The notes beneath the pieces are model-generated. The model did not search any database and was not told the DNA's origin. It worked only from the letters and a program-made list of their open reading frames with translations. Shown here piece by piece: positions 37,539 to 61,301 of a stretch of DNA of 64,000 nt. The stretch lies in the NCBI GenBank assembly GCA_013285805.1, contig JABDGY010000002.1, forward strand, positions 6,011 to 70,010, read 5' to 3'. This stretch comes from Bacteroidota bacterium. GTDB taxonomy: Bacteria > Bacteroidota > Bacteroidia > JABEUT01. The first letter of the stretch is position 1. Every line of letters begins with the position of its first letter. The translations under genes and the position numbers were made by a program.

Positions 37539-37539
37539 T

Positions 37540-44200: not shown

Positions 44201-47109
44201 CAAAGGTAGGTATAAGGAGGTGTTCCACCGCCAGAGTATGCTGTAGCTGTTCCATTGTTCGAATTATAGCAGCCAAGGTTTACAGATATGCTGTCAACCA
44301 CCAATGCAGGTGGATTGTAAACACTAACTGAAGCCGAGGATGTACATCCGTGTGCGTCGGTAACAGTTACACTGCTTGTACCACCCGGAAGGGTATTGTC
44401 GGTAGCCGCTGTTACTCCATTGCTCCATGCATAGGTATAAGGAGAGGTCCCGCCTGTTACTACAACAGTGCCGGTATCGTTAGCGCTTCCGTTACAAGTA
44501 ACGTGGCTCAACTGCTGGCCTTTAACAGATACGTTATCGAACCTGTTATTGCCACTGGTAAGTGTTACGTTACTACCTCCAAACTGAATCTGGAATATTA
44601 AATTAGGGTTATTATTGGCTCCTTTATCAGAAGAAAGGTCAATATGAACCGGATACCACAAACTAGCTGATGTGATAGCATTAATGGCAGTCATTGAATC
44701 GGGTCTTGCTATACCGCCAACATTAAATGTATCCATAGCAGAGGTCAGGTTATTCCATGTAGAACCGCCATCTTTACTATAAGAGAATATAAGGAACTGA
44801 GCTCCCTTACCGCTTGAAGCAGAAAGTGCCCAATCTAACACTATGTTCTGGTAACCTGTTGTAGGAATATACCACATAAATGATGAACCTTGAACAGGGT
44901 TACGCGACCTTACAAAAAGGTTACCGGCCGCTGAACTACCGGTGTCGTTACCTGCTATTGGCAAATCATTAACTCCTGCACCTCCTGAACCATTATCAAG
45001 CAGCGAAGCTGTTGATGAAGGGTGTGAATATATCATGTGCGGGTTAGTTGTAGGAAGAACAGAAACATTAGGAGGCAGCGGGAATGCGCTGGTACCTAAG
45101 CTATCTCCACCGCCGCCGCCGGCAGGTGCTGTAGTGTTAAAATCCCAGTAGTGAATAACTTGCTGGGTAGATGCATTTTCAATGGTATCGTACAATACTG
45201 CAGGCTGGGTAACAGTACCCGTTGCAGCTGATTGGCATCCATTGCTCTCGGTAATGGTAACCGTGTAAGTGCCTGCTGTAAGACCACTTATAGATGTTGT
45301 GGTTGCTCCGTTTGACCATAAATATGTATAAGGAGAAGAACCGCCGGTTACTGTAACTGAAACTGCGCCATTACTGCCGCCGTTACATGATACATTGGTA
45401 ACTGTTGTGTGTCCAACAGCGCCGCTGGTACCAACTGTTACAACAGCAGTACCTGTACAACTATTAGAATCCTTAACGGTAACGGTATAAGAACCTGTAC
45501 CTAAGCCTCCGATAGTTGCAGTAGTAGCGCCTGTAGACCATAAGTAAGTATAAGGAGCGCCTACTTTATGAGGAGTTCCTCCACTAGCACTGGTAACAGA
45601 TGCACTTCCTAAAGTAGTACATGTTACAGGTGAAGAAGAAGTTGAAACTGAAATAGTAGAAGGTTGTGTTATATTTACAGAAACTGTACCTGTACAACCT
45701 TTTGAATCTGTTACAGTACAGGTATATGTACCTGCGGCAAGACCGGTTGCGGTTTTATTCGTGTTTCCTGTTGACCATAAATAAGTATATACACTTGAAC
45801 CGCCGGTTGCATTAACTGTTGCGCTACCATTTGAAGAACCATTACATGTAGGACTAATTTGAGATGTAACGGTAGCAGTAACTGCAGCAGGTTGAAGAAT
45901 TGTAACAGTACAAAAATAATAACCTGAATTATTATCATTTACGTTTACAGTATATGTACCAGCCGCTAAGCCATAAGCTGAATCGGTGGTGGTTCCACCA
46001 TATACTGGAGAATTGGTAACATTTGAAGACCATGAATAAGTATAAGGAGGGGTTCCGCCAACAGCCCATACACGGGCGCTTCCATTATCGCCACCGGAAC
46101 AAGGTGTTACATTTTGACGATTAACACAATACGCTACAAGACCTGTAGTAGCGCTATCGCCGAGAACTGCAAAGTTATCGTAGCGGCCATTCCCGCTGCC
46201 ACCGTTTGAACCTGTACCCACAACTTCCCAACGAAGCATAAAGTTAGGGTTATTGTTAGCAGTAGTTACAGAAGAAAGATTAATTGCAATAGGGCACCAT
46301 AAGCTACTGTCGATACCCGTGGTAGTAGCAGAACAAACTAACAATGAATCGGTGTTGGTTACCCATGAAGACCACCTTGCATTGTTAAAACCAGCAACAG
46401 AAGCTTGTCCACGTGGAATTGAATTCCATGAGGTACCTCCGTTTGTGCTGTATTGGAAAATGTCATACTTATTACCCTTTGAACTTGAAGCGGTAATAGC
46501 AAAATTAACGTGAATGTTCTGGTAACCTGTAGTAGGCATATATACATATGCATAACAGTTTTCAGATGGGTTACGTGTCCTGACAAAACAGTTTCCTGTT
46601 TCACTGGTTCCCGTATCTGAATAGTTCATGTAGTTATAACCCTGGCCACTATAAGAATAGTAAGTGGCACCACCCTGTCCATTGTCAATAATACTATCAT
46701 GGATAGTAGCTGCCAATGGTGTAGTTTGAATTGCATGCGGGCGGATATATACTATCCTGGGATTGCTGCTTACTAATTTCGAATAAACGGCAAACATTGA
46801 ACCTGTATGTTCAAGACTATCCGCATTACGCGAAGGAGGAGACGACAGTGGTGTGTAAGACCACACTGTCCCGAGACTATCGGCTGTTCCCCCATACATG
46901 GGCATTGTGCCGTTAAAATCCCAAAAGTGGATTAATTGTTGTGGTTGCTGGGCGTAACTTCGTGTTGCGAAGGATAGAAAGACCGCCAGCAAACAAACGA
47001 CAAAGATTTTTAAATTTGTTTTCATTTGATGTTTTGTTTGATTTTGATTGATTTTGTTTGGTTTAGAATTACTTGAGTTAATAAAAAATATGTTTTTTTG
47101 ATGTCGCAA
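41248..47109 (-). CDS. giant (1953 aa) SprB-repeat surface adhesin with two copies of an FWDFN-containing N-terminal-type domain and a T9SS type-A C-terminal sorting domain
   Basis: More than 20 SprB-like repeats (C..G..NGSA.V...GG..PYTY.WS.G); FWDFN domains at aa 55-320 and 645-865; and the C-terminus VTLYPNPNSGEFQI...GMYLIRIISQDG. The start region is preceded by copy 2 of the TCTGTAGGA motif. Confidence 0.85.
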   Translation of the reverse strand: MRHQKNIFFINSSNSKPNKINQNQTKHQMKTNLKIFVVCLLAVFLSFATRSYAQQPQQLIHFWDFNGTMPMYGGTADSLGTVWSYTPLSSPPSRNADSLEHTGSMFAVYSKLVSSNPRIVYIRPHAIQTTPLAATIHDSIIDNGQGGATYYSYSGQGYNYMNYSDTGTSETGNCFVRTRNPSENCYAYVYMPTTGYQNIHVNFAITASSSKGNKYDIFQYSTNGGTSWNSIPRGQASVAGFNNARWSSWVTNTDSLLVCSATTTGIDSSLWCPIAINLSSVTTANNNPNFMLRWEVVGTGSNGGSGNGRYDNFAVLGDSATTGLVAYCVNRQNVTPCSGGDNGSARVWAVGGTPPYTYSWSSNVTNSPVYGGTTTDSAYGLAAGTYTVNVNDNNSGYYFCTVTILQPAAVTATVTSQISPTCNGSSNGSATVNATGGSSVYTYLWSTGNTNKTATGLAAGTYTCTVTDSKGCTGTVSVNITQPSTISVSTSSSPVTCTTLGSASVTSASGGTPHKVGAPYTYLWSTGATTATIGGLGTGSYTVTVKDSNSCTGTAVVTVGTSGAVGHTTVTNVSCNGGSNGAVSVTVTGGSSPYTYLWSNGATTTSISGLTAGTYTVTITESNGCQSAATGTVTQPAVLYDTIENASTQQVIHYWDFNTTAPAGGGGGDSLGTSAFPLPPNVSVLPTTNPHMIYSHPSSTASLLDNGSGGAGVNDLPIAGNDTGSSAAGNLFVRSRNPVQGSSFMWYIPTTGYQNIVLDWALSASSGKGAQFLIFSYSKDGGSTWNNLTSAMDTFNVGGIARPDSMTAINAITSASLWYPVHIDLSSDKGANNNPNLIFQIQFGGSNVTLTSGNNRFDNVSVKGQQLSHVTCNGSANDTGTVVVTGGTSPYTYAWSNGVTAATDNTLPGGTSSVTVTDAHGCTSSASVSVYNPPALVVDSISVNLGCYNSNNGTATAYSGGGTPPYTYLWSNGSVSNVDNNLAPGTYTVTVTDLHGCTNTDSVKVVNATPLTAVITPKSVTCYGDSNGSASIVVTGGSAPYKYKWFNKVKSDTITGLKIGTYSVTITDANGCTLVDSATITQPSAITATTTYTVSTCSNSNGSASVTASGGTGPYTYSWSNGATTSSTSSLAPGTYTVTITDANGCVGIPATVTLPNPAPSATITSETNDACNASKTGSATVTASGGTSPYTYSWSPTGGTAPVASSLGAGTYTVTVKDHLGCATTTSVVISQPAAIRDSIAHGSQVNVSCYGGNNGSVTIGVKGGTAPYFFSWTPSVSTGATANNLTAGTYKVAVSDANGCTGTTLTIIITQPAILRDSISTMKNVTCNGGANGSATLGVKGGTGPYTYSWSTGGTSNIVSALTAGSYSVTVTDKNGCTAVATVTITQPSAVRDSITASTNDACNGGKTGSASVGVTGGTSPYTYAWTPSGGTGATATGLGAGSYTVTVKDHNGCSATANAVITQPSKIRDSLVTSSVVNNNCNGTTIGTATIGVKDGTPAYTYAWSNGTTTATASGLAAGVYTVAVDDANGCVGTTVTVTITQPTLLRDSIVATSLKNVTCNGGTNGAATVGVKGGTPTYTYKWSTGATTAAVTTFAAGSYTVTVTDKNGCTAVATVTITQPSAVRDSITATTNDACNGGKTGTATVGVKGGTSPYTYAWSPSGGTSATGVSLAAGTYTVTVKDHNGCSNATAKATITQPSKIRDSLVAALTTEVSCYGGSNGSETVGVKDGTPPYTFTWSPSVSISATASGLTAGSYSVVINDANGCAGTALATTITQPTQLRDSITKTTCSLTGNGSAYVGYKGGTPTYTFLWTPSGQTAYYATKLSAGSYTVTITDKKGCQVNAVATVVSCSVGEIGENPNGVDNINVTESKVTLYPNPNSGEFQINGLEEGSTVEIYNTLGMLIRTVSVKDVHMQFNTSDLPNGMYLIRIISQDGTIIGQPKMIKQW

Positions 47110-47166
47110 GATTAGCCCCTTAATCTCAACTTACTATGTCCGGCTCATTAATTAAATGCTAAAACT

Positions 47167-47184
47167 TTCTGTAGGAATTCTGTG
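47167..47184. promoter_or_regulatory. conserved intergenic motif TTCTGTAGGAATTCTGTG (copy 2 of 3), 58 bp upstream of the 1953-aa adhesin gene
   Basis: Same heptamer direct repeat as at 29105 and 56197. Confidence 0.4.
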
Positions 47185-47583
47185 TTAAGAAAATGTGAAT
47201 AGACATATGCAGCTATGTTAAAAACACCCGGAGAATGCCCTGTTTTAAAGGGCTACAGGAAAGTTTTCGTTGATGTTAATTGCTGTAAATCAGGCAAAAC
47301 CAACAAAAGAAGGTTATTCATATATTATATGAATATTAAGCCAATATTAACAAGGAATAGTAATAGTCTTAAGGGCTTTTAAATTAAGCTGGGGAAAAGC
47401 AATATTACTGCCTGGTTAGCTTATTAAATAACCTCGCCTATTTTCTGCTTTCCCCTATATCTTATCACCAGTATATTTTATCCATTATTATCAGAAAACG
47501 TGCCCGGTGATTCAGTATGAATAAAAGCTGAAGTAAGCTTAACCCTAAGGGGTTAATTTTTTCAATTTAAGGTAATAAAGCGG

Positions 47584-48333
47584 TTATAATGAATCAATGA
47601 CTTGCAGGAAAAGGTTCTTCTTTCTTGAAGAAACTGGAATAACCGACGAATCCTTCATAACGGCATACCCCCCATCGGCTTTCTTATAATGCTCAAAATA
47701 GTCAAGGTTGATAAAATGGGATTGATGTATCCTGAAAAAACCGAATTCATTCAGCATATCATCATATTCCTTTAAAGGCTTTGAAATTAAAATCTTGCGC
47801 CCGTCGTTCAGGAAAAACCTGGTATAATTTGCTTCCGATTCACAACGGATAATATCCTTTATGGCTACTGCATATATACTGTCGCTCGTTTTCAAGACAA
47901 TTTTTTTAGACTCCTTATTATTGTTTGAATAGTTATTCTCCAGAACTTCAAGGCCCTGGTTTATGGATGGCTGGTTAACAACCTCCTCAGCCTTGGCTAT
48001 AGCTGCAACCAATTCATTTGAATCAATAGGCTTTAAAATATAATCGAGTGCACTGAACTTGAATGCTTTTAAAGCGTGGGTTTCATACGCTGAAATAAAT
48101 ATAACCTTAAAAGTAATAGGCTTTAATTTATTCAGCAGGTCGAACCCGCTTCCGTCGCGCATTTGTATATCCAGCAAAACAAGGTCGGGCTTATGCTGCT
48201 TAATGGCCTGCATACCCGATTTAACCCCATCGGCTTGTGCAATAACTTCAACTTGCTTGCAATACTTACTAATAATTGAAGCAATTACCTCGCGGGCGCT
48301 TTGCATATCGTCAATTATTATAACTCTTGTCAT
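47584..48333 (-). CDS. LytTR-family response regulator (LytR/AlgR type)
   Basis: REC domain with the phospho-acceptor Asp context (DLVLLDIQM), plus a C-terminal LytTR DNA-binding domain. Confidence 0.85.
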   Translation of the reverse strand: MTRVIIIDDMQSAREVIASIISKYCKQVEVIAQADGVKSGMQAIKQHKPDLVLLDIQMRDGSGFDLLNKLKPITFKVIFISAYETHALKAFKFSALDYILKPIDSNELVAAIAKAEEVVNQPSINQGLEVLENNYSNNNKESKKIVLKTSDSIYAVAIKDIIRCESEANYTRFFLNDGRKILISKPLKEYDDMLNEFGFFRIHQSHFINLDYFEHYKKADGGYAVMKDSSVIPVSSRKKNLFLQVIDSL

Positions 48334-48363
48334 TTATTCGTATATATTATAAAGATAAGTATT

Positions 48364-50490
48364 CTATGTCAATTCATGGAGTGGAAACTCAAAGACTACT
48401 TTTGTCCCCGTTGCTTCTCCTGCTCCATTTCTTAAGTCTATAATTTTCATTGAAATCTTTTTGCTTCCGTTCCCGTTAAGCAAGGTAATTCGTTCTTGTG
48501 TAATATTAGTGGCAACCGACAAATGTTTATCGCCCCGGTGTTTATTTATTTCATTCGCCTTTTCCCGGCCAATGCCGTTATCTTCTATTTCAAGTCTGAA
48601 TTTCTCTCCCTGCTGTTTTAACCGTATCGTAACCATTCCCTTTCCATCCGTTTTATTTGATATGCCATGTTCTATAGCATTTTCAATAAAGGGTTGAGCT
48701 ATCATCGGTGGTACGTTAATATTTTCAGTGTCCATTTCAGCATCTACATCAATAACAAAGTCGAACTTATGCTGGTAGCAGAGTTGCTGGAGAATGAGAT
48801 AATACCGTAAGGTAGAAATTTCTTTTTCAAGAGAAACATATTCATGCTTCGAACCTTCAAGAATAGAGCGCATAAGTTTAAATACCGACGAAAGGTAATC
48901 AGCCGCCTTTTGTGGTTCTTCCTTATAAATGAAGTTCTGTATGCTGGTCATTGCATTAAATATAAAATGCGGGTTCATTTGCGAACGCAATAATTTTTGC
49001 TGCAATTCTATTTTTGTGTGCAATGTCTTTATCCTGTTCTGGCGGAGCCATAAGAACCCAATGCCGATAATAATTAGAACAAGGCTTATCAATCCGAAAA
49101 TAAGATAGCCGCTTTGTTTTATTTGCAGGTTCTGTATTTCATTCTTTTGCGCCAGTTCTTCAATTTCCTTTTGTTTTTTCTCATTTTCATACCTGGCTTC
49201 CATTTCTGCCATTTGCTTGCTTTTTGCTATGCTAAAAAGTGTATCCTTTAAATGAATAACATTATCGAGGTATTGTGCCGATGCTTTATAATCTCCCGCT
49301 TTTGCCAACGTATGCCCCAATACCAACGACAACTCCATTTTTTGTTGTGTCAGCCCAAGGCTGTCAGCAATACCATATGCTTGTTTAAAACATGCTATTG
49401 CTTTCGCATAGTCTTTCTTTATTTCATAAATATCGCCAACACCGCGTATTCCCATTACAACACTTAACCTGTCATTTACAATTTTAGCTTCGGCAATGCT
49501 GTTCTGTTCATATACTAAAGCTGAATCAAGTAATTTAGCATGCGCAGTATAAAATCTTTTATCATTTGAAACATATTCAAGCCCTTCACCTGCCGTATCA
49601 TCTTCATAAGCCACAAGGAATGTCTGTCCTATATTACCAATAGCCTTTTGAATGTTGCCCAGTTCACCAATCTGCCTGCTTAAATTAAGCGCACGGTAAG
49701 TATATAACATAGCCATAGAATGGTTATGCAGATATAAATATCCCAGGCCTATATTCTGGTAGTCGGGTATAAGTTTGGTGGGGTCACCGGAAGTACTATC
49801 CATTTTAAGAGCCAGGAAATTATTTTTGAGCCCTTTTAAATTATTTCCTTCTATATAATAAAGATTACCCAGGTTGCTATATATTGATGCAGTTCCCGAT
49901 TCATCGTGCTGTAATTCAAATGCCTTTTCAGCCTTAATAAGATATTCCTCTGCTTTGGGGTAATTGCCCATATCTTCATAATCAAGTCCTATGTTATTGC
50001 ACATTTTCCCAATAGATTTCGGGTTTAACATGCTATCAATTGAAAGGGCTTTGAAGTAATAGTCGAGCCCGGTAGTATAATCATCCTGGTCAGAAGTAAT
50101 ATTCCCCAGCTCATTATAAATAGAGCTCAATTTCACATTATTGTTATACTCATTGCTTGCAGCCAACGCGCTATCTTCATAGGAAATGGCAGTTTTCAAA
50201 TCGCCTTTCAGTTCATAAAAGAGCCCTATGTTATATTGTGCATTAATTATGCCTTTCTCCCATTTGCCTGAACGTGAAAGGTTTAGTGCCTGGCGAACAA
50301 CCAGCAGGGCAGTATCAGGATTTTTAAATCCCACCTCATAGCCCAGGTGTATGAGTGTATTAATTTTTTCAGTATCACTGGTTGAATGGGCAATAACATT
50401 TTTAAGTGAATCGATTTTATAGCCGGCAACAAGGGGCAAAGAAAAACTCTGAAAAAATAAAAGAATTAATATGTGCTTCTTTTTACTCAT
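48364..50490 (-). CDS. sensor histidine kinase with signal peptide, TPR repeats, one TM helix and a LytS-type His_kinase/HATPase output
   Basis: TPR repeats in the N-terminal two-thirds, TM helix YLIFGLISLVLIIIGIGFLWL, a LytS-type His kinase domain (NPHFIFNAMTSIQNF) and HATPase motifs (IENAIEHG, DNGIG). Confidence 0.85.
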   Translation of the reverse strand: MSKKKHILILLFFQSFSLPLVAGYKIDSLKNVIAHSTSDTEKINTLIHLGYEVGFKNPDTALLVVRQALNLSRSGKWEKGIINAQYNIGLFYELKGDLKTAISYEDSALAASNEYNNNVKLSSIYNELGNITSDQDDYTTGLDYYFKALSIDSMLNPKSIGKMCNNIGLDYEDMGNYPKAEEYLIKAEKAFELQHDESGTASIYSNLGNLYYIEGNNLKGLKNNFLALKMDSTSGDPTKLIPDYQNIGLGYLYLHNHSMAMLYTYRALNLSRQIGELGNIQKAIGNIGQTFLVAYEDDTAGEGLEYVSNDKRFYTAHAKLLDSALVYEQNSIAEAKIVNDRLSVVMGIRGVGDIYEIKKDYAKAIACFKQAYGIADSLGLTQQKMELSLVLGHTLAKAGDYKASAQYLDNVIHLKDTLFSIAKSKQMAEMEARYENEKKQKEIEELAQKNEIQNLQIKQSGYLIFGLISLVLIIIGIGFLWLRQNRIKTLHTKIELQQKLLRSQMNPHFIFNAMTSIQNFIYKEEPQKAADYLSSVFKLMRSILEGSKHEYVSLEKEISTLRYYLILQQLCYQHKFDFVIDVDAEMDTENINVPPMIAQPFIENAIEHGISNKTDGKGMVTIRLKQQGEKFRLEIEDNGIGREKANEINKHRGDKHLSVATNITQERITLLNGNGSKKISMKIIDLRNGAGEATGTKVVFEFPLHELT

Positions 50491-50847
50491 CTTATATTAA
50501 TACTGTAAAGATAAGACAGGTTGCCGATTGATGGCAAAAAGCCCCTTTTTTATTCATTTACCTATGTTTTCCGGTAAAAATCTATAACCGAATAATAGTT
50601 TAGATATAGCGAATAATCAATGGGCTATATTCTATAGGAAAGAGAGGGGTTAAATGGAATCCCGATTACTGAAATTTGCGTTGAAAGTATATGTAAGTAC
50701 AATTATGAGAGCAACAGATTCAGCTTTTATTTTCTTACCGGTGGAATACGTATCGAACAAAAGTTAAGGGACCTAAGGCAAAACTAAATTTACTATATAT
50801 TTGACAATCATCCTTAATCGCAAATTACATACTTAATAAATACAATC

Positions 50848-53800
50848 ATGAAAAAATCTACAGCCTTATTCAAAATCGTTCTTACCATGGTTACCTTAAC
50901 CATGCTATTTAACTTCACCAAAGCCCAAACAGTTGGTGTATTATATGGCATGGCACCAAAAGGAGGAGATAGCCTGGGAGGTGTTCTGTATAATTACGAC
51001 CCCCTTAGCTCCGCAAACAATGTGGCTTACCCTTTTCAAAACGTAGGGCCTGAGTATCCTTATTATAATAATATGATACAGGCTAACGATGGTAACTACT
51101 ACGGTATGACAAGCTCGGGTGGTGGTTATAGTTATGGAACATTATTCCAGTATAACCCAACAACTAAAAAAGTAAAGGTGCTTGTTAACTTCGACAATTA
51201 TACTCTTGGGGCAGACCCTACCGGAAGCCTTATACAGGCCACAGATGGAAATTTATATGGCATGACAAGTTTTGGAGGAAGCATAAATGGTTTTGGTACC
51301 TTATTCAGATACTCTTTATCGGGAACTTTTACAACCCTGGTTGTATTTAACGACACAAATGGCGGAAACCCATACGGTAGCCTTATACAAGGTGTCGATG
51401 GCAAGTTATATGGCATGACAAACACAGGTGGCATGATTGGTAGCGGAAATTACGGTTACGGTTTTGGTACAATATTTGTCAGCACATTATCGGGTACACT
51501 TGCAACCCTGGTTAATTTCGACAGTACTACTATGGGCTGTTATCCTTATGGCAGTCTTATTCAGGGTATTGACGGTAACCTGTATGGTATGGCAAACCAG
51601 GGCGGTACTTCTGACTCAGGAACAATGTTCAAGTGCAGTACAACAGGAACGTTCACTACTCTTGTAAATTTTAATCATACTAAAGGCTCTCTCCCGTATG
51701 GCAGTCTTATCCAGGCTACCAATGGCTATTTGTATGGTATGACTGAAATGGGCGGTGCTTCAAACCAGGGAACACTATTTAAATGTACAACTGCTGGCAC
51801 ATTTAGTTCACTGGGCTTTTTTGCCAATGGCGAATATCCTCTTGGCAGTGTTATACAAGCTACTGATGGTAACCTGTATGGTATGACAAGCGGTGGCGGT
51901 GCTCATGGTGATGGTTACGTTTTTAAATGCGGCCTGAGTGGAGGCTTTTCCGACATCTTTGATTTCAATAGTGTAAATGGACAAAATCCTTTCAGCAGCC
52001 TTTACCAGGGGAGCGACGGTGAACTTTACGGAATGACATATGTTGGCGGTACTGTGAAAAGTGGTACACTTTTCAAATGTTCTACAACAGGAACCCAGGT
52101 AGTGCTTGATAATTTTGCCAGCTGCTCCAATGGCAATCTTCCTTACGGAAACGTAATTCAGGCTACTGATGGAAACCTGTACGGCATGACTGAATATGGC
52201 GGAACATATAATCTGGGAAGTATATTCCAGTACAACCCGGTTTCAGGCGCATACAAAACCCTTTACGATTTTGATAGCATTCACGGTGCAACCCCAACGG
52301 GAACCCTACTGCAGGCAAATAACGGAAAGCTATACGGTATGACGGACGATGGGGGCAAGCACGGTTACGGTATACTTTTTTCCATAACAACTGCAGGTGT
52401 TTTTGATACACTTATGAGTTTCAGCAACCAAACTACAATGGGTGCATATCCTGTTGGCGCGCTTATTCAGGCTAAAGATGGAAATTTATATGGCGCTACA
52501 CTGCAGGGAGGCACGGCCAGTGAAGGTGTATTATTCAAATATACACTGGCAGGCGTCTTTACCAAATTAGTTGATTTTACAGGTAGCAATGGCGCGTACC
52601 CCAGGGCAGGCGTTATGCAGGCATCTGATAACAACTTATATGGCACAACCAACCAGGGTGGTTCATCAAGTTCAGGAACAATTTACAGGTGTACAACCAG
52701 CGGAACACTTACTACATTGGTAAACTTCAATTATGGTAACGGTGAAAATCCTTATAGCAAACTTGTTCAGGCAACTGATGGAAATTTGTGGGGCATAGCA
52801 GGCAGCGCAAATGGCGAAGTATTTAAGTGCAGCCTTGCAGGAACCCTTACTGTAATGGCTTCAATGAATGGAAGCACAACAGGCGCTACACCTGAGGGTA
52901 GTCTTATCCAGGCTTCAGACGGTAATTTTTACGGTACAGTTTATGGTGGAGGTACTACCGGATATGGTATTGTGTTCCAATGTACATTGGCCGGTGCACT
53001 TACACCTGTTGTGAATTTCAATATCAATAACGGTCAGGGGCCCAATGCTGATCTGACTGAAGTTATGAGCGTATCTGTTTCAGCAAGCGATGTTGGTTGT
53101 ACAGTTCAAACACTTACTGCAAATGTGAGAGGCGGTGGTACAATAGTGCCTTATACTTATTCATGGTCTACAGGTGCAACCACATCGAGTATAAGCGGCA
53201 TTACCGCTGCAGGTACATATAGTGTTACTGTTACCAATTCAAAGGGCATAGCCATTACCTCAAGTATTGCATTGCCATCATTTACGCCTATCAGTTCTTC
53301 CATGGTCAGCGTAAATGAACCTTGTTTTGGCGATAACTTTGGCAGCGCCACCGATAATGTAATGGGTGGTACATCACCTTATGTTTATTCATGGAATAAT
53401 GGAGCAACCACTTCTGCAGTTAATAATGTGGGGGCGGGAAAATATGTTGTTACTGCTATTGATAATTCAGGCTGCAAAACAAAAGATAGTGTAACCATAA
53501 CACAACCCTCAATGCTTACGGTTGCAATGACGGGCACTAATGACAAATGCTTTGGGTTCCCGAATGGCTCTGCTTCGGCTACCCCTGCCGGAGGTACATC
53601 CCCTTATGTTTATTCATGGAATACATCCAGTACCGCCCCTTCTATTAACAACCTTGCTGCAGGAACCTATAGTGTTACCGTAACAGATAATCATGGGTGT
53701 ACAGCCATGGGTACCGATACGGTTAAGCAACCAGCTAATACACTCGATAGTGCCAGAATATGTATGGTAACCGTTGATACAGGTTCGGTACATAATATCA

Positions 53801-54612
53801 TATCGTGGAATACAACGGGCATTACTAATGTAGATAGCTTTAAGGTTTACTTTTACAATTCCAGTAACCACTGGCAATTACTTGGTGAACAGTTATTCTC
53901 GGCACCAAGCTATTATGTAGATACAGCCAAAATCAACAATCCTAATGCCAATACGGTTAGGTACTGCTTAACCGCGGTTGATTCATGCGGCAATGAAGAA
54001 GCCATTACCGCAAGTACCTGGCAGAATACAGCCCATATAATAAATACAGGCGGCGGAACCTTTAGCTGGTCAGGAACAGGATACCTTATCCAGGGTGTGG
54101 GATTACCTGTTCAAACATACTATCTGTACCGTGATAATTTAAGCAGCGGCAACTGGAAAGCTATCGATTCTGTATCAGGTACCCAGAATACAATGACCGA
54201 CCCGAACTATTCTTTGTATCCTACCGGAAGGTGGAGAGTTGATGCATTGCTTAGTGTTTCCGGATGTACTCCTCCAACTTTGAGGGTTGAATCAATCAAT
54301 TACAATTCTTCAAAATCGAACATTATAGATGGTTTCATAACAGGAGTGCAAACTATTTCTTCTGCAAACTCTGTTTCTGTATATCCTAATCCTGCAAACC
54401 AGGTGCTGAATATCAGTTTCGCTAAGTTCAAGTCCGACAATGTTAGTATAGATATTACAGATGTCACCGGTAGAGTTATAATGAGCATGGATGCAAATGC
54501 TACTCAAGGTAAAGTTCTTCCTGTGGACATTGAATACCTGCCTTCGGGAATTTACTTTGTACACATTGCAAATAATAACTTTACTCAAACAGTAAAATTT
54601 GTAAAGGAATAA
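50848..54612 (+). CDS. large (1254 aa) secreted protein with choice-of-anchor tandem GloVer (Gloeo_Verruco) repeats, SprB repeats and a T9SS type-A C-terminal sorting domain
   Basis: About 20 repeats of G.LYGMT..GG....GTLFK....GTFTTLVNF (GloVer type), then PYTYSWSTG / PYVYSWNNG SprB repeats, and a C-terminal VSVYPNPANQVLNI...GIYFVHIANNNFTQTVKFVKE. Confidence 0.8.
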   Translation: MKKSTALFKIVLTMVTLTMLFNFTKAQTVGVLYGMAPKGGDSLGGVLYNYDPLSSANNVAYPFQNVGPEYPYYNNMIQANDGNYYGMTSSGGGYSYGTLFQYNPTTKKVKVLVNFDNYTLGADPTGSLIQATDGNLYGMTSFGGSINGFGTLFRYSLSGTFTTLVVFNDTNGGNPYGSLIQGVDGKLYGMTNTGGMIGSGNYGYGFGTIFVSTLSGTLATLVNFDSTTMGCYPYGSLIQGIDGNLYGMANQGGTSDSGTMFKCSTTGTFTTLVNFNHTKGSLPYGSLIQATNGYLYGMTEMGGASNQGTLFKCTTAGTFSSLGFFANGEYPLGSVIQATDGNLYGMTSGGGAHGDGYVFKCGLSGGFSDIFDFNSVNGQNPFSSLYQGSDGELYGMTYVGGTVKSGTLFKCSTTGTQVVLDNFASCSNGNLPYGNVIQATDGNLYGMTEYGGTYNLGSIFQYNPVSGAYKTLYDFDSIHGATPTGTLLQANNGKLYGMTDDGGKHGYGILFSITTAGVFDTLMSFSNQTTMGAYPVGALIQAKDGNLYGATLQGGTASEGVLFKYTLAGVFTKLVDFTGSNGAYPRAGVMQASDNNLYGTTNQGGSSSSGTIYRCTTSGTLTTLVNFNYGNGENPYSKLVQATDGNLWGIAGSANGEVFKCSLAGTLTVMASMNGSTTGATPEGSLIQASDGNFYGTVYGGGTTGYGIVFQCTLAGALTPVVNFNINNGQGPNADLTEVMSVSVSASDVGCTVQTLTANVRGGGTIVPYTYSWSTGATTSSISGITAAGTYSVTVTNSKGIAITSSIALPSFTPISSSMVSVNEPCFGDNFGSATDNVMGGTSPYVYSWNNGATTSAVNNVGAGKYVVTAIDNSGCKTKDSVTITQPSMLTVAMTGTNDKCFGFPNGSASATPAGGTSPYVYSWNTSSTAPSINNLAAGTYSVTVTDNHGCTAMGTDTVKQPANTLDSARICMVTVDTGSVHNIISWNTTGITNVDSFKVYFYNSSNHWQLLGEQLFSAPSYYVDTAKINNPNANTVRYCLTAVDSCGNEEAITASTWQNTAHIINTGGGTFSWSGTGYLIQGVGLPVQTYYLYRDNLSSGNWKAIDSVSGTQNTMTDPNYSLYPTGRWRVDALLSVSGCTPPTLRVESINYNSSKSNIIDGFITGVQTISSANSVSVYPNPANQVLNISFAKFKSDNVSIDITDVTGRVIMSMDANATQGKVLPVDIEYLPSGIYFVHIANNNFTQTVKFVKE

Positions 54613-54639
54613 ATAAGCTGACAACCCCATGATAAAAAG

Positions 54640-54972: not shown

Positions 54973-54989
54973 ACTAAATTAATTCGGTT

Positions 54990-56072
54990 TTAGTTCTTTA
55001 CAAACTTAAGGATGTAAGAATTTCCTGTCCTGGTTTCCTTAATATTTACAAAATACAAACCAGAGCTCAACTCTTCTGTATTAATATTAAATTGCTTGTT
55101 CTCTTCTACCTGTATAGAATTTACAGGCTGGCCAAGAACATTATATACAGTTACAATTTTAGAACCATTGTAAGTACCATTGATGGTAGTAGAAGTACTT
55201 GCAGGGTTAGGATATAAAGTATAGCCGCCCACCGGAGAAGATAATTCATCAATAGAAGAAGGGCCTGTAGCTAAAACAGCTATATTGTCATACCTGTCGT
55301 TATGGCTAGGTGCTGAACAATTAGATCCTGCCGGGCGGAATCTCAGAATAAAATTAGCATTGTTATTCACTGAGGTATCGCTTGCAAAATTTATCTGAAC
55401 CGGGTACCAGCCGCTGGTAGCTGTAATGGTATTATTTATCAGTAAAGTGTCAGGATAACGAACACCGCCAATATTAAAAGTATCCATTGCCTGGGTAAGG
55501 TTTTTCCATGTAACACCGTTATTGGTGCTATATGAAATTATATTGTATTGCGCAGCGCCAGAGCTGGAAGTAGAAACTGCATAATTTACTGAAATACCCT
55601 TGTAACCTGTGGTTGGGGCATAAATGTATAAATAGCAGCTATCGGAAGGATTACGGGCCCTGATAAATCCGTTGCCTATTGCACCTCCGCTATCACTTGT
55701 AGTGAAGTACGAATATTTGTTGCTACTGTAGTCGTAATAAAATGCTCCTCCAGAACCTTCATCAAGAATACTGTCTCTTTGTCCTGTTCCGCCTGAGCCG
55801 TAAATTTTAGTCGGGCGGGTGTAAATAATATGTCCCTTTGATGACAATGGTGCAGTGTAAGCCGCATTCAATGGCCAGGTATCCATGGTGGAATCACTGG
55901 CTGCCGTGTTGATATAGCTGAATATTGTTCCAACACTGTCACCAGCTGTAACTGTCACCGGGTGAAATTGGTTAAAATCCCAGAATTGAACTAGTATCTG
56001 AGCATTTGCCCTGGGAAGGGAAAATACTAAAGACACTGATAGCGCTAAATAGATGTAAAGTTTTGTTTTCAT
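54990..56072 (-). CDS. secreted protein with one FWDFN-type domain and a T9SS type-A C-terminal sorting domain
   Basis: Signal peptide; the domain runs from FWDFN through YSTNNGVTWKNLTQAMDTFNIGGVRYPDTLL to RYDNIAV; and the C-terminus YTLYPNPASTSTTI...GLYFVNIKE...ILKFVKN. Confidence 0.8.
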   Translation of the reverse strand: MKTKLYIYLALSVSLVFSLPRANAQILVQFWDFNQFHPVTVTAGDSVGTIFSYINTAASDSTMDTWPLNAAYTAPLSSKGHIIYTRPTKIYGSGGTGQRDSILDEGSGGAFYYDYSSNKYSYFTTSDSGGAIGNGFIRARNPSDSCYLYIYAPTTGYKGISVNYAVSTSSSGAAQYNIISYSTNNGVTWKNLTQAMDTFNIGGVRYPDTLLINNTITATSGWYPVQINFASDTSVNNNANFILRFRPAGSNCSAPSHNDRYDNIAVLATGPSSIDELSSPVGGYTLYPNPASTSTTINGTYNGSKIVTVYNVLGQPVNSIQVEENKQFNINTEELSSGLYFVNIKETRTGNSYILKFVKN

Positions 56073-56196
56073 GAACTTTGTTTTAGTGTGTTATTAATAA
56101 ATACTTAAAGTGGCGCAAGAGTAAGGCTTGTTTGTTACCTTATTGTTAATTACATATTACGATAAGTATTCATTTTCAATTGACTGCAGCGCTCAA

Positions 56197-56215
56197 TTCT
56201 GTAGGAAATCTGTAG
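56197..56215. promoter_or_regulatory. conserved intergenic motif TTCTGTAGGAAATCTGTAG (copy 3 of 3), 125 bp upstream of gene 54990..56072
   Basis: Same heptamer direct repeat as copies 1 and 2. Confidence 0.4.
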
Positions 56216-56242
56216 TATGATTTCCACTCCTTATCCATTACC

Positions 56243-57310
56243 TTATTTGATGTATTTAAGCGAAAGCTCAATAGCGCCTCTGCCTGAAGAGGCTACATTT
56301 AATTGGGACACATTTTCATCGTAACTAATACCAATACAATAATCTCTCACTTTCATGCCCAACATAATAATAACGGCATCATTCCACCTGTAATAAATTC
56401 CCATATCAAAGGCATTACCGCCCTTTTTAATGCCGGTATACCTGCTTTCATCCTGCATTACATAATATCTCAACTTTATCCCGGTATTCAATTCCTGCGA
56501 GGGTCCCTGTGAATAATAGACAAAGCCCGGTATTACAGTTAAATAAGAACCTCTTATACCAAGTTCTAGGCTGCCATGTATGTCGTACCTCATGTATAAA
56601 AGCGTACCATTCACTGAACTTCCATAGAATGAAATATCAGGCTGGTTAATATGATACACTGCAAAGCCTACATCAGCCTTGCTTTCATTATTAGTTGTCA
56701 TTCCTACCTGCCCCGATGAATATTGATAATTTGCCCCTGCTGAAAAATCCATATAGGAAAACGAATTACCGAAAGTGGGTTCCCCGGTAGGCGCATTGGG
56801 GTCGTAATCATCGCCCACAAACTGTTCGCCCCATTGCAACCCGGCTGTATTCATGCTTCGCTGAGCCCAGGCTCCTTGTATTCCGATTGCAACTGTATTT
56901 TTACTGTTCAGCATTATTCCGCATGCCATATTTAAAGCAACTTCGGTCGTACCCATTTTAGCATCTCCCGATTTATCGTTATAAAATAAAATACCGGGAG
57001 ATAAGTAACCCTTTTTCCATTTCTTTACCAGGTTTTGAAATTCCACAGTAGCACCCATTGTATTGAAACCGGCACCGCCTCCCATAACACTCGACCATTG
57101 GCTACGGTAATTTATTGATGCCAGTACAGTACCCTGAAATGACCCGCACAATGCAGGGTTTAACGTAAGGGGCGATTCAGTAAATTGGGAAAAATGCAAA
57201 TCCTGGGCCGCAGCAGGTTTGGCATTAAATGTTGCGGCAAGTACAATTAAAGTAAAAAGTAATATCCTGTTTATCATTCTGCCGTTCGCCGATTTATTAT
57301 TCATCTTCAT
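56243..57310 (-). CDS. PorP/SprF family type IX secretion system membrane protein
   Basis: N-terminus AQDLHFSQFTESPLTLNPALCGSFQGTVLASINYRSQW. It lies 10 bp downstream of a type-B CTD gene. Confidence 0.9.
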   Translation of the reverse strand: MKMNNKSANGRMINRILLFTLIVLAATFNAKPAAAQDLHFSQFTESPLTLNPALCGSFQGTVLASINYRSQWSSVMGGGAGFNTMGATVEFQNLVKKWKKGYLSPGILFYNDKSGDAKMGTTEVALNMACGIMLNSKNTVAIGIQGAWAQRSMNTAGLQWGEQFVGDDYDPNAPTGEPTFGNSFSYMDFSAGANYQYSSGQVGMTTNNESKADVGFAVYHINQPDISFYGSSVNGTLLYMRYDIHGSLELGIRGSYLTVIPGFVYYSQGPSQELNTGIKLRYYVMQDESRYTGIKKGGNAFDMGIYYRWNDAVIIMLGMKVRDYCIGISYDENVSQLNVASSGRGAIELSLKYIK

Positions 57311-57320
57311 TGCGTAAAAT

Positions 57321-60300
57321 TTATTTTACCAGTGTTACGTTTCCGCTTTTTGTTACTTCAGTGCCATCTAAAAGTTTTGCCCATAAGTAATATGCATATA
57401 CATCAGGATTCATTGGCTGGCCGCGGTATGTGCCATCCCATCCCTGGTTTTGCGTCATGCTTTCAAATATTTTATTACCCCAGCGGTCATAAACTATAAA
57501 GTCCATTGAACCTACGCACAGCCCATAAACATACAATACGTCGTTATGGCCGTCTCCATTAGGAGAGAAAACATTGGGAACAAATAAATGTCCGCAAATA
57601 TCTGTAACGTTTACCTGCACTGTATCTTCAGTTTTACACCCGTTTCCATCGGTAGTTATTACATAATAAGTAGTATTTACAAGTGGATTTGCCGATGGGT
57701 CAGGGCAGGTGTTGCAACTCAAAGAACCCGAAGGCGACCAATCATAAATACTTCCCGGTAATTGCGGACTGACCGTTAACGTAACCGATTGACCAATATT
57801 AATGGTTGCAGGGGTAGGTGTAGCAACTTCAACAGGCAACGGATTAACTATTACCTTAACGCTATCTTCTGCTGTACAAACTCCGTTTGCAAGTATAACA
57901 GTATATGTAATAGTTACAGCGGGCTTAGCTACCGGATCATCAATGTTAATTGAACTTAAGCCTGCAGGTGGAGACCAAACATATGTTGCCGCACCCGAAG
58001 CGGAGAGGTTTGCCGAATTACCTATGCAGATTGACTGTGTCGGGCTGACTGTAGGAACCGGTGTCGGGGTTACAGTTACTGTAACAGTAGTGTCTTTTAT
58101 ACATAAGCCATTGCTCACCTGTACTGTATATGTAGTTGTTGTAGCCGGAGTTACAGAATCGGCTGAAGTAGCAGGGCCATTGCTCCATAAATAACTTGTT
58201 CCTCCACTTGCAGTAAGTATGGTAAACTTGCCTGAACAAATAGAAGTGTTTCCGCCAAGTACAGGAACAGGAACAGGGTTTACGGTAACAGTAGTAACAG
58301 TATCTTTACTGCAGGCGCCATTACTTACAGTAACCGTGTATGTACTTGCTGTAAGCGGAGTTACTGAAATAGTAGCCGTCTTCGCCCCTGTGCTCCAGGT
58401 ATACTTTGTACCACCTGTGGCCGTTAGTGTTGCCGAACTACCCGCGCATATAGCCTGGGGTGGTGTTACACCCGGAACCGGAATACTTAATACTGTAACC
58501 GTTATGCTTGTATCTGCAGTGCATAGACCATTACCGACTACAACAGAATATGTTGTGGTAGAAGGCGGTGTTACTAAAATACTTGCGCTAGTTTTACCAT
58601 TGCTCCATGCATACGTGGTGCCACCCGATGCGGTGAGCGTTGTACTGCTTCCCGTACAAATTGAATCTATCCCGCTAACAGAAGCTGCCGGTGTGGGATT
58701 CACAACTATATTAACGCTAGTACTATCTGAACAACCTCCGTTTGTCGCCACTACAGTATACGTTTTATTTGCAGCCGGAGAGACAGTAATTGCAGCAGTT
58801 GCAGCGCCTGTGCTCCACAGGTAAGTGCTTCCGCCGGAAGCTGTAAGTGTTGTTGAATTACCCGAACAGATAGTGTCCTTTCCGCTTATTGCGGGTGTTA
58901 TTTTGGGTGCCACAGTTACAGTAACCTTGGCTGAATCTATACACCCCGATATACTTGTGCCTATTACCTCATAACTAGTAGTAGTAGCAGGACTTGCAAC
59001 CGGGTTCGGACAGTTTGTACATGTTAACGAAGTTGCCGGCGACCAGGTATATTTTGAGGCACCTCCGGCTGTTAAATTAATATTACTTCCAAAGCATATA
59101 GTGGGTGCAGGTGGTGTTACGGTAATAACAGGTAATGGATTTACCTTTATAGTAACATTTGCTGTACTGCTGCAACCACTGGTATTTGTACCGGTAACGG
59201 TATATGTTTGAGTAGCAACCGGGGTAAATGCAACAGCGTTTGTTACTCCGCCTGTCCATGTGTATGTACTTGCCCCTGTTCCGGTTAATGTAACACTTCC
59301 ACCTGCACAAACTGAATCTGCAGATAACGCAGTTGTTCCCACAACCGGCAAAGGATTCACTTTTATTTTTATGCTAGCTGTATCAGTGCATCCCTTACTG
59401 TCAGTACCTGTTACCGTATATGTTTGGGTAGCAGCCGGTGTAAATGCAATCCCGTTTGTTGCTCCTCCTGTCCATGTATAACTTAATGCACCGCCACCGG
59501 TTAATATTACATTACTCCCGCTGCAAACAGAATCTTTACTTGCATTTGCAGTTACCGTAGGAAGAGGATTTACTGCTACAGTAATACTGTCTTTGGAAGT
59601 GCATCCATGGCTGTTGGTGCCTGTCACCGTATACGTTTGTGTTGCTGCAATAGCAAATGGTACACCATTAGTTACTCCGCCCGACCATGTATAGCTGGTT
59701 GCTCCGCCGCCGGTAAGCGTTACATTTCCACCCTGGCAAACTGTGGTTGGTGAAGCAGTGGCAGTAACTGAAGGGACCGGGTTAAGTACTATTTTAACGG
59801 TAGCTGTATTAACGCACCCGCCTACAGAAGTGCCCGTAACCGTATAGGTTTGATTAGCCACAGGTATAAACGGAACTCCATTGGTTACACCGCCCGACCA
59901 GGTATAAGTGGCTGCGCCACCGCCCGATAGCGTTACGCTAGAACCCTGGCAAACAGAATCGGAAGGCAGTGCGTTGCCGGTAACAGTTGGTAAGGGGTTT
60001 ACTTTTACAGTAACCACCGCTGTATCTGTGCACCCTCCGGCATTGGTACCTGTAACAGTATATGTTTGTGTAGCTGCAGGTGTAAATGGAACTCCGCTGG
60101 TTACACCACCTGTCCAGGTATAGGTTAAAGCTCCTCCGGCATTCACTGTAACAGGGCCACCTCCCGCACAAATAGAATCGGGGGTTGCAGTGGCTGTAAC
60201 AACCGGCCAGGTATTCAACGTTAGTGTAGCTGCAGTTGTAGTATCGTTTTTACAGGCTGCACAAATAATTATGCAGCGGAATGTATACCCGTTCATTGTT

Positions 60301-61301
60301 GAAGGGACTTTAGTAAGGTTAAGGCTATCGGTTGTGGCACCGCTATATACTCCGCCATTAATTACATTAACAAATCCGCTGCCGTTATTTACCTGCCATT
60401 GATACGAGGCATTATAAGCTGTTACACCGGTTGCAAAATATGTATCGGTAATAGGGCAAATAGAAACATTCTTCGGTTGCGACCAGATATAAGGACAGAT
60501 ACTATCTCCCTTGATAGATATATTATCGTACCTGTCGCTGCCTGTAATTAAAGTAGAATTCGGCCCGGCAAGGTAAAAACGAATAATAAAACCGGCATTA
60601 TTGTTAGCCGCGTTAGCCGTGGTGAAATCAATATTTACAGGATACCAGGCTTTTGTTGTTGTTACTGAATTAAGAGAAAGCAATGTATCGGGATACCTTA
60701 CTCCGCTAATATTAAAAGTGTCCATGGCCTGCGTAAGATTGTTCCATGTTGTGCCGCCATCGGTACTGTACGAAAAAATATTGTATTCCGCGCCCTTGTT
60801 ACTTGAAGCTGATACAGCATAGTCAAGCAGAATATTCATATAACCTGTTGTAGGTACATACATATATAAATATGAATTGAGCGATGGATTTCGTGCCCTT
60901 ATGCTGAGATTACCACTGCAAGCGCATGGCCCTGAAGCTGCCGTACTATCGCTAACCGTATAGTATGTATAATTTGTACTGCTGTAATCATAATAAAATG
61001 AACCATTAATCTCGTTATCTAAAACACTGTCGACCTTAGTAGCAGGCGCCTGTTTTGTTGCCGGCCTAGAATACACAATTTTTTCACCGCTCAGGGGAAG
61101 TGTTGTATAATCGGCAGGTAATGGGTGCGTTGTATTACCAAGGCTGTCGCCACTTCCACCTGCATCACCCAGGCCTGTAAGGGGGCTGGTATTGTTAAAG
61201 TCCCAGAAGTGTATCAGCTTTTTAACCTGGGCGCGGCTGCCAATAGTAACCCCGGAAAGAGCAGCAATAAAAAAAATTCTAAAAAGGTATTTTACCTTCA
61301 C
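57321..61301 (-). CDS. large (1326 aa) T9SS type-B C-terminal-domain surface protein with an N-terminal FWDFN-type domain and about 15 Ig-like repeats
   Basis: GTG start; N-terminal domain from KLIHFWDFN through YSTDGGTTWNNLTQAMDTFNISGVRYPDTLL; tandem repeats of about 72 aa (NPLP.VT....SVC.G..VTLTG.GA..YTWTGGVTNGV.F.P.ATQTYTVTGT); and the C-terminus FVPNVFSPNGDGHNDVLYV...[11 protein letters not shown]...GNVTLVK. Confidence 0.85.
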   Translation of the reverse strand: MKVKYLFRIFFIAALSGVTIGSRAQVKKLIHFWDFNNTSPLTGLGDAGGSGDSLGNTTHPLPADYTTLPLSGEKIVYSRPATKQAPATKVDSVLDNEINGSFYYDYSSTNYTYYTVSDSTAASGPCACSGNLSIRARNPSLNSYLYMYVPTTGYMNILLDYAVSASSNKGAEYNIFSYSTDGGTTWNNLTQAMDTFNISGVRYPDTLLSLNSVTTTKAWYPVNIDFTTANAANNNAGFIIRFYLAGPNSTLITGSDRYDNISIKGDSICPYIWSQPKNVSICPITDTYFATGVTAYNASYQWQVNNGSGFVNVINGGVYSGATTDSLNLTKVPSTMNGYTFRCIIICAACKNDTTTAATLTLNTWPVVTATATPDSICAGGGPVTVNAGGALTYTWTGGVTSGVPFTPAATQTYTVTGTNAGGCTDTAVVTVKVNPLPTVTGNALPSDSVCQGSSVTLSGGGAATYTWSGGVTNGVPFIPVANQTYTVTGTSVGGCVNTATVKIVLNPVPSVTATASPTTVCQGGNVTLTGGGATSYTWSGGVTNGVPFAIAATQTYTVTGTNSHGCTSKDSITVAVNPLPTVTANASKDSVCSGSNVILTGGGALSYTWTGGATNGIAFTPAATQTYTVTGTDSKGCTDTASIKIKVNPLPVVGTTALSADSVCAGGSVTLTGTGASTYTWTGGVTNAVAFTPVATQTYTVTGTNTSGCSSTANVTIKVNPLPVITVTPPAPTICFGSNINLTAGGASKYTWSPATSLTCTNCPNPVASPATTTSYEVIGTSISGCIDSAKVTVTVAPKITPAISGKDTICSGNSTTLTASGGSTYLWSTGAATAAITVSPAANKTYTVVATNGGCSDSTSVNIVVNPTPAASVSGIDSICTGSSTTLTASGGTTYAWSNGKTSASILVTPPSTTTYSVVVGNGLCTADTSITVTVLSIPVPGVTPPQAICAGSSATLTATGGTKYTWSTGAKTATISVTPLTASTYTVTVSNGACSKDTVTTVTVNPVPVPVLGGNTSICSGKFTILTASGGTSYLWSNGPATSADSVTPATTTTYTVQVSNGLCIKDTTVTVTVTPTPVPTVSPTQSICIGNSANLSASGAATYVWSPPAGLSSINIDDPVAKPAVTITYTVILANGVCTAEDSVKVIVNPLPVEVATPTPATINIGQSVTLTVSPQLPGSIYDWSPSGSLSCNTCPDPSANPLVNTTYYVITTDGNGCKTEDTVQVNVTDICGHLFVPNVFSPNGDGHNDVLYVYGLCVGSMDFIVYDRWGNKIFESMTQNQGWDGTYRGQPMNPDVYAYYLWAKLLDGTEVTKSGNVTLVK

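Follow-up and report, generated by a model that had tools for sequence, protein, structure and literature searches.

What is the role of a domain that recurs at the head of otherwise different surface proteins and that belongs to no named family? The question is raised by a 64,000-nt stretch of DNA from an uncultured soil Bacteroidia bacterium (the window, to which all coordinates refer), in which three genes, called here A, B and C and all lying on the minus strand, encode type IX secretion system (T9SS) cargo proteins that share a domain opening with a FWDFN-like strand. An original prediction, made from the letters of this DNA, had placed four copies of the domain in the three proteins, two of them inside the largest, and had proposed that it is a ligand-binding or enzymatic module mounted on differing stalks. 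Our reading is that the domain represents an unnamed family of extracellular jelly rolls and that it probably serves as a non-catalytic ligand-capture head of T9SS surface proteins, displayed at the tips of SprB or Ig-like stalks, a view that we hold with moderate confidence.

Four copies of one domain on three T9SS proteins

The copies are ~220-267 residues long, and pairwise identities between them range from 38 to 48% (Table 1). Aligned with MAFFT, the four segments show 43-45% identity to the first copy and 49 invariant columns, while BLASTP connects the second copy of gene A to that of gene B (2e-53, 39% identity) and the copy of gene C to the first of gene A (6e-52, 38% identity). A1 is the longest and most diverged of the four, and A2, with 221 residues, the shortest. 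Two profiles, one built from the four copies and the other from 27 sequences of the family (run with filters off), were scanned against the six frames of the window; both returned exactly the same four copies and no further one. A search with regular expressions in the six frames gives the same picture, as [FY]WDFN and R[YF]DN occur four times each, always paired, and inside genes A, B and C only. The proposed placement of the copies, including the doubling within the product of gene A, is thus borne out by profile scans, with MAFFT and BLASTP supporting the four copies, and the boundaries agree within a few residues.

The host proteins are T9SS cargo, as had been proposed, since Pfam and NCBIfam models of T9SS C-terminal domains (CTDs) match in all three, and what follows the domain differs from one to the next as predicted: SprB repeats and a type-A CTD in A, a CTD alone in B, and Ig_7 repeats with a type-B CTD in C. 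For the type-A CTD, with cut-offs of 27 bits (Pfam) and 23 bits (NCBIfam), gene A scores 59.3 and 54.6 bits and gene B 46.1 and 41.7 bits. The type-B assignment of gene C comes from CHU_C (54.1 bits), TIGR04131 (51.4 bits) and a PorP_SprF match in the next gene. In a full-length structural model of the gene B product, the CTD part matches the CTD of mirolase (8qb1) in Foldseek with a target-normalised template-modelling (TM) score of 0.73. Repeat marks give the order of elements in gene A as signal peptide, A1, four SprB repeats, A2, thirteen SprB repeats and type-A CTD; Pfam recognizes SprB there at E 4.4e-142 in 16 stretches, versus 17 Y-x-[YF]-x-W marks by motif count. The PorP/SprF-family outer-membrane protein encoded next to gene C is presumed to be the anchor or partner of its type-B product, and PMC9143113 describes the pairing of type-B CTDs with PorP-like proteins, the class reported to anchor type-B cargo.

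The true start of gene A is almost certainly the ATG at 47025 and not the upstream TTG at 47109, because a database protein of 1925 residues (P0152) is identical from Met29 of the listed open reading frame (41248..47109) onwards, Met29 being that ATG; residue numbers for gene A are counted here from the TTG. Read by eye, the signal peptides of the three proteins each end in Ala, followed by Gln. With cleavage placed in this way, the mature product of gene A would begin with a Gln 7 residues ahead of the first strand of the domain, and in the three proteins the first strand would begin ~5-8 residues past the mature N-terminus.

Table 1. Positions of the domain copies, their host genes and associated elements in the window. 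aa, residues; gene A is numbered from the TTG at 47109
Feature	Coordinates	Strand	Description
Domain A1	46147..46947	-	aa 55-321; 185 bits, E 1.5e-56 to family profile; Asp-box STNGGTSW
Domain A2	44512..45174	-	aa 646-866; 210 bits, E 3.5e-64 to family profile; Asp-box SKDGGSTW; YWDFN ... RFDN
Domain B	55257..56009	-	aa 22-272; 194 bits, E 3e-59 to family profile; degenerate Asp-box STNNGVTW
Domain C	60504..61232	-	aa 24-266; 198 bits, E 1.4e-60 to family profile; canonical Asp-box STDGGTTW
Gene A	41248..47025	-	type-A T9SS cargo; 1925 aa when started at the ATG at 47025
Gene A signal peptide	46951..47025	-	MKTNLKIFVVCLLAVFLSFATRSYA before putative cleavage, QQ after; read by eye
SprB repeats x4, between A1 and A2	45175..46146	-	marks at aa 356, 441, 520, 594; Pfam SprB
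SprB repeats x13, gene A stalk	41473..44511	-	Pfam SprB and repeat marks
Gene A type-A CTD	41254..41472	-	PF18962 4.7e-16; TIGR04183 8e-15, aa 1880-1952
Gene B	54990..56072	-	360 aa, minimal form: signal peptide, domain, type-A CTD
Gene B type-A CTD	54993..55217	-	PF18962 6.2e-12; TIGR04183 8.4e-11
Gene C	57321..61301	-	1326 aa, GTG start: signal peptide, domain, Ig-like repeats, type-B CTD
Gene C Ig-like stalk	57585..60503	-	Ig_7 PF19081 2.3e-23, 5 stretches; CHU_C-associated and related repeats
Gene C type-B CTD	57330..57584	-	PF13585 CHU_C 1.7e-14; TIGR04131 9e-14
PorP/SprF-family outer-membrane protein	56243..57310	-	PF11751 5.2e-38, 131.6 bits; 10 bp downstream of gene C

An unnamed family in a known fold class

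The domain is bounded by a first strand, (I/V)H(F/Y)W(D/N)FN, and a last one, GNxR(F/Y)DN(I/V), and embedded between them is the motif YS(T/K)(D/N)GG(T/S)TW, which has the sequence pattern of an Asp-box (S-x-D-x-G-x-T-W); it is canonical in C and A2, has Asn for Asp in A1 and is degenerate in B. The motifs that had been listed for the domain are present in the translations of the three genes, but about half of them are particular to a subfamily. This is seen in the alignment of 27 trimmed sequences (A4; core of ~165-190 residues, positions in A2 numbering), where WDFN, RxRNP, PTTGY, the Asp-box, NNNxNF and RxDN are family-wide motifs of the core, whereas GDSLG, LDNGSGG, AMDTFN..G.R.PDT and WYPV lie in insertions specific to a long-form subfamily. 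Eight positions of A4 are invariant (W10, N13, R91, P104, Y132, R211, D213 and N214) and a further set is nearly so (F12, D60, R89, N92, P93, T105, T106, G107, G137, N187-189, G208 and N209); none of its invariant columns holds an E, H, K, S or C.

No named family in the libraries compared (Pfam-A, NCBIfam and PDB sequences) accounts for the domain, in agreement with the original prediction, which could assign it to none. When the three complete proteins are run through hmmscan against Pfam-A and NCBIfam (E<=0.1), no family covers the domain beyond sub-threshold Asp-box noise; the sub-threshold matches there are to Reelin_subrepeat-B, Tli3 and Flagellin_IN/FERM_F1 (E>0.02). PDB sequences compared with the four-copy and the 27-sequence profiles yield nothing but non-significant matches centred on the Asp-box (reelin, sialidases). 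Relatives in the database are called 'hypothetical protein' or are named after the sorting tail ('T9SS ... domain-containing'), and a literature search on the motif strings found no description of the domain. Their weak Pfam echoes are to Reelin_subrepeat-B, BNR, Sortilin-Vps10, Mo-co_dimer and CHB_HEX_C, families that carry Asp-boxes in differing folds. Neither Cleaved_Adhesin (PF07675) nor MAM (PF00629) nor any Pfam model of a carbohydrate-binding module (CBM) matched in the window proteins or in the relatives scanned. By these sequence comparisons the domain is a new sequence family within a known fold class, unannotated in Pfam and NCBIfam.

Reelin subrepeat B (PF21471) is likewise a jelly roll in which an Asp-box is embedded; it is the only Pfam family with a recurrent sequence echo, and reelin repeats are also found among the fold matches. 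The window domain is nevertheless not a member. Gene B scores 14.2 bits and gene A 16.5 bits with 0 significant stretches, against a threshold of 27 (E-values in the window proteins are 0.04 and 0.0076), and the 60 bits reached in multi-copy relatives, which do exceed the threshold, are a sum over their copies. Moreover, the similarity is confined to the surroundings of the Asp-box, and reelin is eukaryotic, with subrepeats separated by EGF domains. The suggestion that the domain might be one of the choice-of-anchor domains finds no support, and it was rejected as an assignment together with TANFOR. Both resemble it in that they stand, so far without explanation, at the N-terminus of large proteins secreted by Bacteroidota (PMC7073777 presents TANFOR as an N-terminal domain of Bacteroidota surface proteins), but no NCBIfam model of either matches the three window proteins at E<=0.1. 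CBM17 was considered on account of a literal 'FWDFN' in a review of CBMs: the CBM17 sequence given in PMC9100146 shows 'xWDF(N/E)' in its N-terminal strand and 'xDN(I/V)' in its C-terminal one, the same bracket as in the window domain. It was rejected as the family, hhalign giving a probability of 2% with 8 residues aligned, and the shared bracket appears to be a generic pattern of terminal strands and nothing more.

The family is large. A word-indexed search returned 127 relatives, ~70 of which are orthologues of gene B, 330-370 residues long, from uncultured Bacteroidia; the others include compact Flavobacterium lipoproteins with one copy (~215 residues) or two (~400 residues). An exhaustive HMMER search with A4, made on representatives of clusters at 50% identity, matched 3,497 of them at E<=1e-3; 503 of them reach E<=1e-30. 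The proteins range from 314 to 3,630 residues and have up to 7 matched stretches each. In the top 148 representatives the median domain is 182 residues long and proteins have 1-5 full-length copies, two being commonest. Among copies from family representatives, [RK]xRN is retained in 274 of 334, Rx[DE]N, which lies close to the C-terminus, in 306, and S-x-[DN]-x-G-x-x-W in 153. Partner domains are all of the surface or stalk kind and comprise Por_Secre_tail, CHU_C, SprB, Ig_7, Big_2, He_PIG, Flg_new_2, CarboxypepD_reg, and LTD plus CotH. A CTD was found in at least 66 of 162 family proteins with a home-made profile that missed P0121 and P0137, both called by Pfam. Members named to a group come from Saprospirales, Cytophagaceae, Flavobacterium and Bacteroidia, so far restricting the family to Bacteroidota. 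In related metagenome-assembled genomes the domain genes stand in paralogue arrays, and the large protein with two copies ~600 residues apart is a conserved architecture.

A divergent sister variant is found at residues 20-210 and 215-405 of P0126 and at the N-termini of P0136 and P0156, and precedes canonical copies in some proteins. It reads VITQWTFDG ... TVGFENI ... YTIDGG(E/D)NW ... NNNADF ... GNWR(L/F)LNVTF and has a weak F5_F8_type_C signal that sums to 41 bits, with no stretch significant alone. Its sequence suggests a superfamily wider than the A4 profile captures.

The domain had been described as an N-terminal head, but this is not its only place, since internal, tandem and small-lipoprotein copies also occur across the family. 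Of 140 full-length representatives, 108 have their first copy no more than 55 residues from the N-terminus. So constant a position right after the signal peptide could be taken to mean that the domain binds nothing and is an N-terminal cap, needed for folding, for the handling of long repeat proteins by the T9SS or for coupling to gliding tracks. We give this idea hardly any credence, in view of the internal copies (the second of gene A, and the many relatives in which the first copy starts past residue 500), of the members found in lipoproteins that lack a T9SS CTD, and of gene B, which has no stalk to cap.

Structure prediction and fold comparison place the domain in the beta jelly-roll class, with distant neighbours only. 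Given an alignment of 60-63 family members, AlphaFold2 models the A2 copy alone (m524c1e2c0be5) as 12 beta strands with a predicted local distance difference test (pLDDT) of 88.1 and a predicted TM score (pTM) of 0.88, and the full-length gene B product (mf2b69abdd8cc) as all beta (pLDDT 85.9, pTM 0.71). pLDDT is lower in two subfamily-specific insertions of the window copies, which hold GDSLG and AMDTFN..G.R.PDT. With the domain-only model, Foldseek finds 43 PDB chains at E<=1e-3, nearly all of them jelly rolls of the galactose-binding-domain-like class: CBM4-2, the ligand-binding domains of EphA7 and EphA4, the K1, K2 and K3 adhesin modules of Kgp, CBM15, CBM22, meprin MAM and reelin repeats, with E-values of 5e-5 to 1e-3, TM scores of 0.3-0.47 and identities of ~10%. 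Among the viral models of BFVD, the matches are phage tail-fibre and CenC-like carbohydrate-binding tips. The predicted fold is therefore securely that of a beta-sandwich of this class. The full-length model of B also gives two-domain alignments in the PDB, to the CBM4-Ig pair of CbhA and to the N-terminal region of GH2 beta-glucuronidases, at a root-mean-square deviation of ~15 Å; homology to the GH2 enzymes was rejected, and we read these matches as mimicry of a 'jelly roll plus Ig-like CTD' domain pair.

Probable ligand capture and its alternatives

A shared ligand-binding head on differing stalks, as had been suggested from the letters, fits the predicted jelly-roll fold and its binding-module neighbours. 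We favour binding over catalysis because the fold neighbours are non-catalytic, the copies form tandem arrays, no residue of a catalytic type is invariant and no enzyme domains are fused to the family. Established knowledge of the T9SS, together with PMC9143113, indicates how such a head would reach its place. The cargo would be exported by Sec, folded in the periplasm and passed out by the T9SS through its C-terminal domain, after which type-A cargo (A and B) would be attached to the cell surface and type-B cargo (C) held by the adjacent PorP/SprF partner. The N-terminal jelly roll would thereby come to lie farthest from the cell, at the tip of the SprB stalk in A and of the Ig-like stalk in C, and directly on the CTD in B. 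In that position it would capture its ligand much as a lectin or a CBM does at the head of an adhesin, and further copies (two in all in gene A, up to 5-7 in relatives) would raise the avidity. The ligand may be a glycan or another anionic polymer, a guess that we make because of the invariant Arg-x-Arg-Asn-Pro, the Asn-Asn-Asn and the aromatic residues.

Several known systems resemble it in part. The beta-jelly-roll CBMs (CBM4/CBM9 'CenC-like', CBM22 and CBM15) share the fold class, provide the best Foldseek matches, both among PDB chains and among phage tail fibres, and are likewise modular, non-catalytic and often in tandem. Unlike them, the window domain has an embedded Asp-box and no glycoside hydrolase partner, and it has no sequence-level relationship to them, at TM scores of 0.3-0.47. 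The cleaved adhesin modules of gingipain and HagA are also repeated jelly-roll adhesion modules on Bacteroidota T9SS cargo, and those of Kgp (K1-K3) rank 3-6 in Foldseek with E-values of 5e-5 to 8e-5, while meprin MAM aligns with a TM score of 0.44-0.46; however, identity to the gingipain adhesin and to MAM is ~10%, the conserved motifs differ, and the resemblance is one of fold. As regards overall architecture, the closest parallels are the mobile adhesins SprB and RemA of Flavobacterium johnsoniae, with long T9SS repeat stalks and, as in gene C, a type-B CTD gene followed by its own PorP/SprF-like gene. RemA has a lectin module. The head module of the window proteins is a different and unnamed family, though, and genes A and B use type-A CTDs.

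The possibility that the domain is an enzyme, also raised by the original prediction, is not supported by these data. Since some jelly-roll families are enzymes, one may imagine a surface-displayed polysaccharide lyase or hydrolase, in which the Arg of RxRNP and the invariant Tyr and Asn could in principle make an active site for an anionic substrate, and compact members of the family are linked to a phytase-like gene (see below). Yet an invariant acid/base or nucleophile is missing, save for one Asp in the last strand, the 2-7 tandem copies per chain are a usual feature of binding modules but not of enzymes, and the top fold neighbours of the domain-only model are non-catalytic, in place of PL7, GH16 or similar families. 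We consider catalysis very unlikely.

Some observations weigh against ligand capture as we propose it, or at least against its details. The window genes have neither a fused nor an adjacent glycoside hydrolase or other enzyme, so that the classical context of a CBM is missing. The invariant residues may line a cleft, or they may bind a structural Ca2+ or pack the core. All the fold matches are distant, and because TM scores are 0.3-0.47 and identity is ~10%, a function read from this predicted fold is not transferable from any single neighbour. Finally, jelly rolls of the same class also mediate contacts between proteins, as in MAM and Eph. The domain could accordingly act in self-association or protein-protein binding, for cell-cell cohesion or for the assembly of a surface layer or fibres, and not on an external glycan. 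MAM, Eph ligand-binding domains and the gingipain adhesin are indeed among the best fold neighbours, and the paralogue arrays of related metagenome-assembled genomes, like the adjoining genes for other T9SS surface proteins, would suit this role; but the scores of CBMs and of carbohydrate-binding tips from phages are just as good, and the tie of the compact branch to a porin and a phytase-like gene points to the capture of small or polymeric nutrients. We therefore regard a role in protein contacts as unlikely, while taking it seriously.

A lead to a ligand comes from outside the window, from the compact lipoprotein members, whose loci are L007-L011 and L016-L018 (e.g. L010:8001-11117; L009:5907-8654; L018:4017-6645). 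An outer-membrane protein of ~390-415 residues adjoins the compact member in six of six contexts, with a Porin_O_P match on record in five; hmmscan of two of these proteins gave 29.9 and 32.1 bits (cut-off 20.9). An SdiA-regulated/phytase-like beta-propeller of 230-277 residues also lies beside it in five of the six, the sixth having a gene with a weak DUF6929 match instead. A protein of ~450-600 residues with a weak T9SS tail often comes next in the operon, and the large, divergently transcribed neighbour of the compact members has another, divergent copy of the domain. The linkage is conserved rather than inherited as a block, because the members come from different branches and gene order varies. 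A literature search on SdiA-regulated/porin/lipoprotein systems in Bacteroidetes did not find a description of this operon, and the window has no SdiA-regulated or Porin_O_P gene. The operon fits a role in ligand capture and hints at phosphate-containing substrates, in a branch of the family different from that of the window copies.

Extended to the family as a whole, this would make the domain a capture module for phosphorylated or anionic polymers (phytate, extracellular DNA, teichoic-acid-like polymers, phosphoglycan), in which Arg-x-Arg-Asn-Pro and Asn-Asn-Asn would form an anion site and the compact members would pass substrate to the phytase-like propeller and the porin-like barrel. In that case the three adhesins of the window would be variants of longer reach, by which the cell is held to such material in soil. 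We think that so specific a proposal is quite unlikely to be correct as it stands. The operon that joins compact members with a phytase-like enzyme and a phosphate-type porin gives a concrete lead on the ligand that can be tested.

With ligand capture as the preferred reading, the fold and the logic of binding module, repeat stalk and T9SS are familiar and will not surprise a specialist; the interest lies in a gap in annotation. At least some 3,500 clusters of Bacteroidota surface proteins (at 50% identity) have no Pfam or NCBIfam model for this domain, and hence the T9SS cargo proteins and lipoproteins that contain it, thousands in number, are named after their sorting tail or simply 'hypothetical'. 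A definition of the family by a core that opens with W(D/N)FN and closes with R(F/Y)DN, and that has RxRNP, PTTGY, the Asp-box and NNNPNF in between, helps both annotation and the choice of constructs for ligand screens, and opens the question of what soil and freshwater Bacteroidota stick to.

Other genes of the window

Directly upstream of gene A, at 47584..50490 on the minus strand, lies a pair made of a LytS-type sensor (tetratricopeptide repeats plus His_kinase) and a LytTR response regulator, separated from the ATG at 47025 by ~560 bp. The pair may regulate gene A. The order gene C, PorP, gene B, SprB protein, kinase is kept in near-identical metagenome strain contigs; L014 and L015, two such contigs, both show C, PorP and B in this order, and the same kinase stands beside the cluster in L014. 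Among genomes, a scan turned up relatives at no more than 56-58% identity, all of them metagenome-assembled and from uncultured Bacteroidia. The SprB protein, encoded between genes A and B on the plus strand (50848..54612), is a T9SS type-A protein of 1254 residues with two SprB repeats near residue 900. Its ~900 N-terminal residues are mostly without a Pfam match, apart from a weak echo of gp37 tail-fibre trimerisation at residues 408-451, and the protein has no copy of the FWDFN domain. Two further genes encode putative T9SS cargo, one of 489 residues at 61432..62901 (plus strand; Por_Secre_tail 24.9 bits against a cut-off of 27, with 400 unannotated N-terminal residues) and one of 265 residues at 7475..8272 (minus strand; Por_Secre_tail 35.7 bits).

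A second group of surface genes occupies 19303..28872 on the minus strand. The gene at 22378..28872 encodes 2164 residues, among which collagen triple helix is matched in six stretches (PF01391, E 1e-79) and an intramolecular-chaperone domain, Peptidase_S74, is also present; the start of the next gene (20412..22391), which codes for a CHU_C protein with a type-B CTD, overlaps its end, and a second PorP/SprF gene follows at 19303..20403. From its sequence, the group is a collagen-like fibre with a putative chaperone of the phage-tailspike type inside a T9SS type-B cassette, and this collagen-like gene region accounts for the local GC peak of 0.47. Elsewhere, an ordinary RND efflux operon on the plus strand (31666..40731) encodes an outer-membrane factor, a membrane-fusion protein and two tandem AcrB-type pumps of 1064 and 1063 residues. 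On the minus strand, a gene for a 561-residue protein in which a Kelch beta-propeller is joined to an OmpA domain at the C-terminus (13534..15219) is adjoined by two SpoIIE-type phosphatase genes (5254..7245 and 11348..13498).

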